A DNA stretch of 64,000 nucleotides from Okamejei kenojei (taxonomy: Eukaryota). The position numbers were made by a program, and so were the translations under genes. The DNA lies in contig CM069165.1 in the NCBI GenBank assembly GCA_035221665.1, forward strand, positions 17,050,001-17,114,000, in the 5' to 3' direction. Below the pieces are notes generated by a model that searched no databases, was not told where the DNA came from, and worked only from the letters and a program-made list of their open reading frames with translations. This document shows, piece after piece, positions 28,047-35,274 of the stretch (the stretch's first letter is position 1; every line of letters starts with the position of its first letter).

Positions 28047-29763
28047 GTAAGATGAAGCAGCCTCCTATCTGTCTGCTTTAATTGCTGTCTAAAGGAGGTG
28101 TGGTGCAGTCAGTGGCTTATTGATACTTAATAACGGGTAGACATGATATGTCATCACATTGCTGAAGATGGCTCTGGTGATTGCTCATATTCTGATTCAA
28201 TAGCATACAAGAAATATAGTGATTGTCCTGACTTTTTTTAACGAAGTTTTCCAACTTTCTTGTTACAATTGGAGCTCTACTGTTGATGTCCAGTTTATGT
28301 AACTGGGAATAGAATGTCCCTTCCTGACATTTTACAAACCACTCTATCTTCTTGGTTAATATTGGACTCCAGTTGAGATTATGAGTAGCATTGTAGCAAA
28401 TGCAGCCTCATGCAGCATTATGGCTTGTGTGTCATAAAATTTGCCCTAGACTTGCCCTAGACAATGGTGGCGAAGCAGTTAAATTACTGGAGTAGTAATC
28501 TGAAGAATAATCTCACCAGGGCAGCTGTGGAATTTTAAATCATTTAGCAAGCTGGAATTGTGTGAAGAGACAGTCATTAACGAAGATGACATTTATAATA
28601 TTGTTTCAGGTATGAAAACTTACATCCTTGACATGTCTGACCTTATCGTGACTTGAGACCCACTGACGTGGTTCACTGTTAAATACCCTCTGAAATGCAC
28701 GCCACTCAGATCAGAAGCAATTAGGGACGGGCAATAACTGTCGTTAGCGAGGACCAAATCACACGGAATAACTGAATTGGAAACTAAATTACATTTACAG
28801 ACTAATTACAGGAAAACTTGTTGAAGGCATCAGGTAATCAAAATGAACCTGCTGCACTTCAGGCCAAGGCTGGCAGCTCAAGTTGCTAGTTTGTTTTAAA
28901 AATAGCTCGGTTGAAGAGCTCAGTTAAAACATCTTCAATCATTTCACAGGCTCTGTGAACTCAGTTTTCCCTCGTAATGTTCACATGTCAAGGTGTAAAA
29001 ATGTTGCTCGGGTCACATTGTGATGGGAGGTTGGAGGTGGAAGAAGAGGAGCTGGCAATGGAGAGGAGTGAAAATGGAGGAGGAGGAAAGGAGGCAGAAA
29101 GTAAGGAGAGTGGGGTCGAGAAGGGGAGTTAGGGAGTTGGTGGAAGGAGGCTGTCCCAATTTTACAGTGAGAGAGTGTGCAGTGGAAGAAGTAGTTTGGG
29201 TGGAGGAAAAGGGACCTTCAGGGAGGAGATGCTGGGGTGGAGGAGGGAGCGGATGTTGGGAGATGGGATGAAACTGGAGCTGTAGATGGAAGGGGCTATG
29301 ACAATGCAAGGCCGCCAAGGGATATAGTAGGACAGGGTCACAGAGACTGACAGCTCTGCTGTTGCTCACTCCATGTTGTGAGAGCATGCTGCTGCTCGGA
29401 ATGTGCAGCCTTTGTGATTCCATTCTCGAGTTCAAAAAAATTGCTCCAGTTTTTCACTAATAAACGTAAACCTAAGCTCTGTTCTACCCCTCCTTGTCCA
29501 TCTACGATGTTCTTTTGAACACGAGAGGTCATTTGAATTGGGCAGGTGAAATTATTGACACAACCATTTACCTGATTGGAGTTATTTGTTTTGCCATCAT
29601 TAAGCAGGCTGTTTAAGTAAATATGCTGAGCTTTTACATCCAAAAGCTCTAAACCTAATGACCAAATACAAACATTACGAGGTTTGTGTTCTTCGTGCGC
29701 TTTCCAGTTGCTGGCTTTATAAAGTCTGACCCACTGGCTTTTTCAACATGTTTAGGGGTTAAC

Positions 29764-29903
29764 TTCTTCTTCTTGCATATGGCGTGCACAGCCTAAAGTT
29801 GTCGGACAACTTGTTCCATTTGATCTTATTTGATTGTGCACACTGGGTTGATTGCATTCGTCGAAGCAGGGCGGACCACGTGAAGGTTGCAATCTTCCAC
29901 CCC
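29764..29903 (-). mobile_element. ~140-nt non-autonomous retroposon with a 5' HDV-like ribozyme and (GAA)n tail, copy 1
   Basis: TSD tttaggggttaac (29751-29763) / tttaggggtcaac (29904-29916); colinear with the copy at 34754. Confidence 0.9.
29850..29903 (-). ncRNA. Minimal HDV/CPEB3-like self-cleaving ribozyme (54 nt), copy 1
   Basis: GGGGUGG-AA-GAUUGCA-ACC-UUCACGU-GGU-CCGCCCU-GC-UUCG-A-CGAA-UGCAAUC: 7-bp P1 with G1-U wobble, 7-bp P2, 3-bp P3, CPEB3-type L3, and J4/2 CGAA carrying the catalytic C. Confidence 0.85.
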
Positions 29904-29934
29904 TTTAGGGGTCAACAATGCAAACAAACACCAT

Positions 29935-30452
29935 TATGTTAGGGATTTGACGAGGACTGGGAGAGGTCGTGCAACATCATTCTAGATTTACTAGAATGTT
30001 ACCAGGGTTCCAGCAACTATGTTACAGAGAAAGGTTGAACAAGTTAGGTCTTTATTTCTTTGGAGCGTTGAGGGGGGACTTGATTGAGGTCTTTAAAATG
30101 ATTAGACAGAGTTGACGTGGATACGCTTTTCCCATTGAGGGTAGGGAAGATTCAAACAAGAGGGCATGACATGCGATTTAAGGGACGGAAGTTTAGAGGT
30201 AACGTGAGGGGGAACTTCTTTACTCAGAGGGTGGTTGCTTGTGTGGAATGAGCTTCCAGCAGAAGTGGTGGAGGCAGGATCGATTTTAACATTTAAAAGT
30301 AAAGTGGATAGGTATATGGACGTGAAGGGAATGGAGGGGTATGGTCTGAGTGCAGGTAGATGGGACTAGGGGAAAACAAATGGTCGGCACGGACTGGAAG
30401 GGCCGAGAGGGCCTGTTTCCCTGCTGTAATTGTTATATGGTTATATGGTTAT
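29935..30452 (+). mobile_element. CR1 LINE 3' fragment
   Basis: gagggggacttgattgaggtc (RGDLIEV), ttctttactcagagggtggt, (gttatatg)n tail. Confidence 0.9.
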
Positions 30453-34274: not shown

Positions 34275-34753
34275 GTAGGTGTGTGGTGGAAGAAACCCAT
34301 TGTGTTGGTGTGGGAAGTGAAGTTTACCCGGATGCTTTCAGTTTGTTGTCATGTGTGTTTGTGTTTGACTCTGTGCCCTTTAAGGTGAGTGAAAGATATT
34401 GTCTGCACCTAGATCCCCCGTTCACCACATAATTCATTAAAGTGTACTTGTTTTCCGTCAGCACTGGAGATATAATTAACAATTATCAAAGGAGTTTGAA
34501 TATCTTCACCTGCAAAACTGGAGAAATGCCTCCCAAATGTAAAATTTGATGTTTTTGTAATCTACTTCTGAGAAATCTGTGCAGCACAATTTTATGAGGA
34601 GGATGGGGAGAGTTTTACTTTTGATCTCTTAAAAAACATTTCCTACCCAGTTTTTATACAGTTAACAATAGTCAACAGTAGACACCAACTTTAGTTCATG
34701 TAAACCAAAGAGATCCGACGTTTGTTAACATGTGCCTCATCACCCGGTACTAC

Positions 34754-34893
34754 TTCTTCTTCTTGCGTATGCCGTGCACAGCCTAAAGTTGTAGGACAAC
34801 TTGTTCTATTTGATCTTATTTGATTGTGCACACCGGGTTGATTGCATTTGTTGAAACAGGGCAGACCACGTTAAGGTTGCAATCTCCCACCCC
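34754..34893 (-). mobile_element. ~140-nt ribozyme-headed retroposon, copy 2
   Basis: Perfect TSD acccggtactac (34742-34753 / 34894-34905); same 5' start and (GAA)n tail as copy 1. Confidence 0.9.
34840..34893 (-). ncRNA. Minimal HDV/CPEB3-like ribozyme, copy 2 (partly decayed)
   Basis: GGGGUGG-GA-GAUUGCA-ACC-UUAACGU-GGU-CUGCCCU-GU-UUCA-A-CAAA-UGCAAUC; all helices retained, L3 C>A change and CpG-type changes. Confidence 0.75.
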
Positions 34894-35274
34894 ACCCGGT
34901 ACTACAGATGTCTGAATTACAATACTTTTTTGCATAAATCTGTGTTTTTAACATTTCCTGTGTTAATGACTTCGAAATATGAAACACATTCACAAACCTA
35001 CAGTTGCCTGGATCTCTCTGCTTTGATGGCCTGAGAGTCTGGGGTCAATGATTTGCCAGCTGTCAGTTGATTTCTGAATGCAGCAAACAGTCTGTGCTGA
35101 GACGAACCCCCTTGCTGCAGTCGGCCATATCAAAGTGTTAGATTTCTCTCCATTTTGGGGAAAAATAATGATTGTTTGTTTTTTGTTTTTCAAAATGGAG
35201 GGACCCTATGAAGCTTGTCAGACACAATTTGTATTAACAAATGATGCTCATTTTAATTTGTTAGTCCATATTAC

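Follow-up and report, generated by a model that had tools for sequence, protein, structure and literature searches.

On the minus strand of the window, i.e., the whole stretch of 64,000 nucleotides analysed here, lies a short retroposon whose first 54 nt are predicted to fold as an HDV-type ribozyme lacking the P4 helix (Table 1). The 54-mer is found at 29903-29850 letter for letter as in the original prediction, which placed it at the head of a tiny retroposon; copies, target duplications, a parent LINE and covariation between families all agree with that placement. The element is composed of the first 77 and the last about 40 bases of this LINE, joined by a short junction segment. Its 3'-derived part holds the last codons and the stop of the open reading frame (ORF), a short 3' UTR and a (GAA)n tail. 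From its sequence, part of the junction looks like a short local duplication together with an inverted copy of the 3' part, forming a 7-bp hairpin.

Table 1. Features of the short element and of its surroundings in the window; ribozyme positions run from G1 at 29903.
Feature	Position	Strand	Remark
Whole short element, about 140 nt	29764..29903	-	bipartite non-autonomous derivative of a 3.05-kb LINE
Predicted P4-less HDV-like ribozyme (54 nt)	29850..29903	-	head of the short element
Ribozyme P1	29903-29897/29874-29868	-	pairing assignment
Ribozyme J1/2	29896-29895	-	
Ribozyme P2	29894-29888/29856-29850	-	
Ribozyme P3	29887-29885/29877-29875	-	
Ribozyme L3	29884-29878	-	
Ribozyme P1.1	C22(29882)-G37(29867)	-	single pair
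Ribozyme L4, 5 nt	29865-29861	-	
Ribozyme J4/2	29860-29857	-	putative catalytic C at 29860
Predicted cleavage site	between 29904 and 29903	-	just before G1
5'-derived part, matching the first 77 nt of the parent LINE	29827..29903	-	87% identical
Junction segment	29803..29826	-	between the 5'- and 3'-derived parts
3'-derived part, matching the parent LINE's 3' end	29764..29802	-	97% identical
Target-site duplication, upstream copy, 13 bp	29904..29916	-	abuts G1
Target-site duplication, downstream copy, 13 bp	29751..29763	-	one mismatch
Second copy of the short element	34753..34893	-	92% identical, in the same window

The second copy is flanked by an exact 12-bp target duplication (34894-34905 and 34742-34753) and is likely inactive as a ribozyme, because a C22A change breaks its P1.1. 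A search of the 64-kb window for pieces of the parent-LINE ORF found none. Between 29781 and 29844, the segments that follow the ribozyme and precede the tail are complementary over 9-10 bp around a palindromic hexamer. The two ends of the parent LINE show the same complementarity, which might draw the 5' and 3' ends of the RNA close to each other. Positions 29984-30450 belong to another repeat, about 470 bases long and 84-93% identical to its copies at other loci; the short element sits about 80 bases from the end of this repeat.

Copies, insertion signature and parent LINE

In the genome (2.76 Gb), a 19-mer from the middle of the short element has 13,041 exact matches and a 28-mer from its head 6,130, while the reversed patterns of both have none; these figures are lower bounds on the copy number. 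The first 70 matches to the middle 19-mer along one chromosome, picked irrespective of the head, were taken as a sample. Sixty of these copies start exactly at G1 and 66 within positions 1-5; three are truncated and one has an insertion. A target duplication of at least 10 bp is present in 49/70, ending between -2 and +4 of G1 in 46 of them, and over 66 copies the average divergence from the majority, counting differences between subfamilies, is 6.3%. The base preceding G1 is a T in 34/57 copies (L098-L167), mostly as the final base of the target duplication, and may reflect a target or priming preference. Moreover, in DNA runs of four organisms the G1 boundary is the largest pile of 5' loose ends (428, 391, 241, and 153 contigs), which indicates that the short family is common to relatives. 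An allele table drawn up from these contigs yielded two positions only and did not serve for a per-site test. From a structural perspective, the element has the traits of bipartite non-autonomous LINEs, that is, joined LINE 5' and 3' ends devoid of an ORF, target duplications and a microsatellite tail.

The parent LINE was found with a pattern that excludes the head: the loci share only the last 40 nt with the short element, and upstream of these they contain a reading frame. A LINE-specific 3' 26-mer has 337 matches in the genome (up to one mismatch), and the 30 LINE 3' ends examined are 5'-truncated at varied lengths. Among the long loci, 22 in number, two extend over about 3.05 kb and have the head of the short element in line, and in three the head is inverted. 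Such 5' inversions, with the head inverted beside the rest of the LINE, are seen in many long copies (L074, L077, L079, L048, L053, L093, L097), and at one locus (L061) a short-element copy is inserted within a copy of its own parent. The LINE has a single ORF with APE and RT domains, in which an RNase H domain was sought and not found; none of the 22 loci keeps the ORF intact, the longest open frame being 423 aa. Relatives of this ORF are mostly about 1,000 aa long on 3.2-kb contigs, and the named ones, chiefly from arthropods, are about 50% identical. One relative, P0001, whose contig measures 3,344 bp, is an intact ORF of 1,019 aa with 75% identity to the parent LINE.

The parent likely belongs to the Vingi clade, since a single APE-RT ORF on a LINE of about 3 kb without RNase H fits the definition of Vingi, in which the lack of RNase H separates this clade from Ingi (PMC13708176, in the part available). 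The original prediction had named R2, RTE and L1Tc as the retrotransposons processed by such ribozymes, and the parent appears to be none of these, but a Vingi-like LINE. That it is instead an RTE or an Ingi element, both clades being known for ribozymes and bipartite derivatives, is a quite unlikely reading, which draws on two points: RTE LINEs are also single-ORF APE-RT elements without RNase H, and the flagged family's head matches the heads of named Vingi elements only in the unpaired core and the fold. Besides the absent RNase H, which argues against Ingi, the LINE at locus L168, whose head is like those of named Vingi elements (see below), speaks for Vingi: it is 34-40% identical to P0001, the close relative of the parent, while another LINE piece in the same loci reaches only 23-29%.

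Fold and covariation of the 54-nt head

In the window copy all 18 proposed pairs (seven in P1, seven in P2, three in P3 and one in P1.1) are canonical or G-U, and the helices follow each other in the order of the HDV nested double pseudoknot, as had been proposed. A hand-written HDV-type descriptor has this site as its sole match in the window and no match in 100 simulated windows with the same dinucleotide composition, a test that is partly circular given that the descriptor was written after the element was seen. In the Rfam search on a 141-nt stretch HDV_ribozyme (RF00094) was the best match, with 19.9 bits (E 0.44) against a cut-off of 50, followed by HDV-F-prausnitzii (RF02682) with 14.3 bits against 44, both on the 54-nt segment, and the CPEB3 model (RF00622) had no match at E<=10. 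The head is thus below every Rfam ribozyme cut-off, and on 4 kb around the site both HDV models are absent at E<=10, where chance matches only were returned. Nested folding compared with shuffles gave no signal for the head (z -0.02), the 3' part (-1.5) or the whole element (-0.4); for the head this is expected, since a nested model omits the pseudoknot.

Among the 57 ungapped heads of the sample, 31 are intact, with all 18 pairs and the core. The G1-U wobble expected at the cleavage-site end of P1 is well conserved, with G1 in 53/57 and U36 in 50/57 heads. The base after G37 is a U in the family, giving a G-U after P1 as in CPEB3, and the C38 of the window copy is a minority allele, occurring in only 4/57. 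CPEB3 itself tolerates changes at U38 except U38G (author response of PMC9901934, in the part available). J4/2 had been described as CGAA with the equivalent of the catalytic C75: the C is present in 53/57 heads, but by its second base CUAA, which is also the form of the parent LINE, is commoner than CGAA (32 vs 21 of 57). The commonest subfamily alleles sit in J1/2, at the variable J4/2 base and in a U-G/U-A pair. An allele that breaks P3, U29C, is carried by 7/57 heads and has 268 exact genome matches vs 6,130 (about 4%). Alternative pairs, G37-C44 and U38-A43, are possible and could hide the catalytic C; they add no stability in the nested model.

A second short retroposon of about 170 nt (L187-L207, e.g., L190:237-405) also has a P4-less head, with P1 and P3 of the CPEB3 type, together with target duplications and an (AAG)n tail. 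It has at least 683 copies (683 exact matches to a 21-mer), and its parent LINE was looked for and not found. P1 is 6 bp long in 89 of the first 100 matches listed, a length reported as common among R2 ribozymes (PMC3774820, in the part available). The putative catalytic C of J4/2 is present in 12/13 heads of this family. The original prediction took P4 to be reduced to a UUCG loop. This was rejected, because the second family has UUCC and the tetraloop is therefore not conserved; in the flagged family there is no P4 helix, and a 5-nt linker (L4) takes its place.

Covariation was assessed on a gap-free alignment of 15 flagged-family heads (the window copy, 11 of the 57 sampled short copies and three of five LINE heads) and 13 second-family heads (those of 21 fetched loci that fit the 54 columns without gaps), 27 of them distinct. 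Pairing is found in 92.8% of the cells for these 27 heads of two P4-less families, compared with 36-49% when partners are slid. Between the families, 10/17 pairs of P1-P3 are changed on both sides (three in P1, five in P2, two in P3). L3, G37, A43 and most of J4/2 are unchanged, and position 1 is mostly not G in the second-family heads. All this is essentially one comparison between two lineages, and in a shuffle test two of the five measures were not exceeded (202/500 and 349/500). The fold had been proposed before the second family was known, and the printed CPEB3 model by which that family was found does not have P2 among its pair sets. Two-sided changes in P1-P3 around a constant unpaired core support the HDV fold, and the first 54 nt are predicted to form a P4-less HDV-type ribozyme.

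The covarying helices also weigh against an ordinary tRNA-derived Pol III SINE with a head resembling a ribozyme by chance, a reading already disfavoured and now highly improbable. A segment around L4 does resemble part of a B box, as judged against the consensus, but the tRNA search on the short element found none, nor a small-RNA head, and in an autonomous LINE the head forms the 5' end, with the ORF after it.

Heads of other families and the mammalian CPEB3 ribozyme

Searched against the genome, the Rfam CPEB3 model gives 30/59 scored candidates above its cut-off of 35 bits, compared with none in 14 control prokaryotes. These candidates are the heads of families other than the flagged one. 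The best, at L083, scores 66.8 bits on the mammalian model and is identical to CPEB3 at 50/55 positions outside distal P4 (hand count); four of the five differences constitute two compensatory P2 pairs. The same type of head opens a complete LINE, L168:147-3240, with APE and RT homology, a tail and a target duplication, although this copy is broken. L168, L083, L086, L169 and L170 belong to one LINE family, in which an APE-RT ORF comes after a P4-bearing CPEB3-like head. Two additional types of head also exceed the cut-off, represented by L084, L085, L089, L091, L094 and by L090, L095, L096; one has a P4 very like that of CPEB3, the other a long P4 and CUAA. At L181:170-265, an element of about 95 nt has a CPEB3-like head with the sister LINE's tail almost immediately behind it.

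The flagged head itself shares with mammalian CPEB3 (RF00622) an identical L3, the single C22-G37 pair followed by U38, the G1-U36 wobble and, in one subfamily, CGAA. Unlike CPEB3, it has no P4, its P1-P3 sequences are different and it does not match the model, whereas the sister LINE heads pass the family cut-off. Furthermore, the CPEB3 ribozyme is single-copy, intronic and conserved, while the flagged element is a high-copy retroposon.

Resemblance to the CPEB3 consensus is also visible by eye in four named Vingi sequences of crocodilian, sea urchin and amphioxus origin, namely the 5' ends of Vingi-2_Gav, Vingi-4_Crp and Vingi-1_BF and a segment of Vingi-2_SPur, as printed in the supplement of PMC5786205; in the available portion of that paper's text, Vingi is not among the clades listed with ribozymes. 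Taken together, these comparisons suggest that ribozyme heads may be a general trait of Vingi LINEs and that the mammalian CPEB3 ribozyme likely descends from a Vingi head. Convergence on a constrained fold, which would make the likeness uninformative on the origin of CPEB3, is improbable. HDV-like cores do converge, 21/27 core positions of the R2 ribozyme being equal to those of HDV (PMC8256844, in the part available), and the comparison is limited to about 67 nt; however, the identity at L083 runs through helices and J1/2, regions that are free to vary, and the crocodilian, sea urchin and amphioxus heads look similar by eye. Descent from Vingi is therefore preferred here. Overall, it seems rather probable that Vingi LINEs and their mini-derivatives are headed by HDV-type ribozymes, that the 54-nt P4-less form of this family is functional and has spread to tens of thousands of vertebrate-genome sites, and that the CPEB3 ribozyme arose by domestication of the 5' end of an old Vingi insertion.

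Domestication from mobile elements has been put forward in general terms as the origin of genomic ribozymes (PMC7761336, in the part available). The CPEB3 ribozyme was reported as not found outside mammals, and studies of it have consequently lacked an outgroup (PMC8233481, as far as the available part goes). In the literature searched on CPEB3 and Vingi, no paper was found that ties one to the other, and in the accessible parts of that on HDV-like ribozymes, Vingi and elasmobranch retrotransposons the flagged family was not found described. Deleted LINEs with a ribozyme head (SIDEs, NARTc) have been described before, as have P4-less ribozymes; what appears new, in that literature, is that the two occur together in a Vingi-type family of such high copy number, along with the link between Vingi and CPEB3. 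Ruminski 2011, Webb 2009 and Kojima 2011 reportedly may cover Vingi elements under the name Ingi, which bears on this novelty.

Proposed mobilisation and significance

We hold with good confidence that the short family is a 140-nt non-autonomous retroposon, present in over 13,000 copies, in which both ends of a 3-kb APE-RT LINE, probably a Vingi, are joined, and that its 54-nt P4-less HDV-type head would free itself from read-through transcripts by cutting immediately before G1. This is the best explanation for the copy number, the target duplications, the start at G1, the parent LINE with the same head and tail, and the compensatory pairing. A copy lying within a host transcript would self-cleave co-transcriptionally at G1, and the released RNA would start at G1, with its 5' end likely shielded by the pseudoknot. 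The LINE protein would then bind the LINE-derived 3' end, which would be copied through target-primed reverse transcription. With so short an RNA and a 5' end set by cleavage, almost all new copies would be full length and again furnished with a complete ribozyme, so that the element would need no promoter of its own. Cleavage, 5' protection and trans-mobilisation are proposed here after R2 SIDEs (PMC3414825) and L1Tc/NARTc (PMC8256844), as described in the available parts of these papers.

In these R2 SIDEs of Drosophila, as in the flagged element, a 5' ribozyme and a LINE 3' end are joined by internal deletion and mobilised in trans; they are rare and confined to rDNA sites, whereas the flagged element is dispersed, in more than 13,000 copies, with an APE-type parent and a P4-less head. 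NARTc/RIME/SIDER, with the Pr77 of L1Tc/ingi, are likewise short bipartite derivatives of the Ingi group with an HDV-like ribozyme head (PMC3383444, PMC4035085, PMC8256844, all in part). They are trypanosomatid elements with a 77-nt head of shown promoter activity, in contrast to the vertebrate-sized genome, the 54-nt head and the parent without RNase H of the present family. Joined 5' and 3' ends of Vingi LINEs are also described for Vingi-1_EE, SINE2-1_ACar and SINE2-1_AMi (PMC5786205, in part). As to the head, a short linker in place of P4 and a size of about 55 nt are shared with the theta and minimal drz ribozymes of gut phages (PMC10879173, in part) and with two further P4-less ribozymes, that of silkmoth R2 and an abalone ribozyme with 5 nt for P4 (PMC3774820, in part), so that a ribozyme lacking P4 has precedents among animal retrotransposons. 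According to these two sources, P4 is dispensable in known active ribozymes. Theta ribozymes lie directly downstream of phage tRNAs, and phages account for about 99% of the minimal matches (PMC10879173); the flagged element has no tRNA, and its ribozyme stands at the 5' end of a retroposon of high copy number.

Poly(A) RNA-seq reads from a related organism (848 of them, about 6% of one run) show no pile-up of molecule starts or ends, including at G1, and 255 reads cross G1 into unrelated flanks (strand not given, fragmented library, many copies decayed). Over the head, the two mate directions stand at about 295 to 210; were the library stranded as usual, sense transcripts would be the fewer, a bias too weak to use. 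These reads lend no support to cleavage and are in line with another reading, in which the head acts as an internal promoter, or as a fold that binds protein and protects the end, the 5' end is set by transcription start, and catalysis is weak or lost in the P4-less lineage; a dual role as promoter and ribozyme, as reported for the Pr77 of L1Tc (PMC3383444, PMC8256844, in part), is a possible variant. A precise 5' end is expected under either model. Nevertheless, this alternative is unlikely, given that the 5' end coincides with G1 of P1 in 60/70 copies and that L3 and the putative catalytic C persist between families despite the complete divergence of their helices. A self-cleaving head remains the preferred explanation.

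If this is true, Vingi heads would be the outgroup that CPEB3 studies have lacked, and near-identical heads on LINEs make the origin of CPEB3, a ribozyme linked to memory (PMC8233481, in part), directly testable. CPEB3-like LINE heads would also supply structure-function studies with natural variants. With its native UTRs, Vingi-1 serves as a platform for gene insertion (PMC13708176, in part), and a self-cleaving 5' UTR would bear on template design. As for the genome itself, thousands of intact minimal ribozymes, as extrapolated from the 31/57 intact heads sampled, could cut the host transcripts in which they lie in sense orientation.
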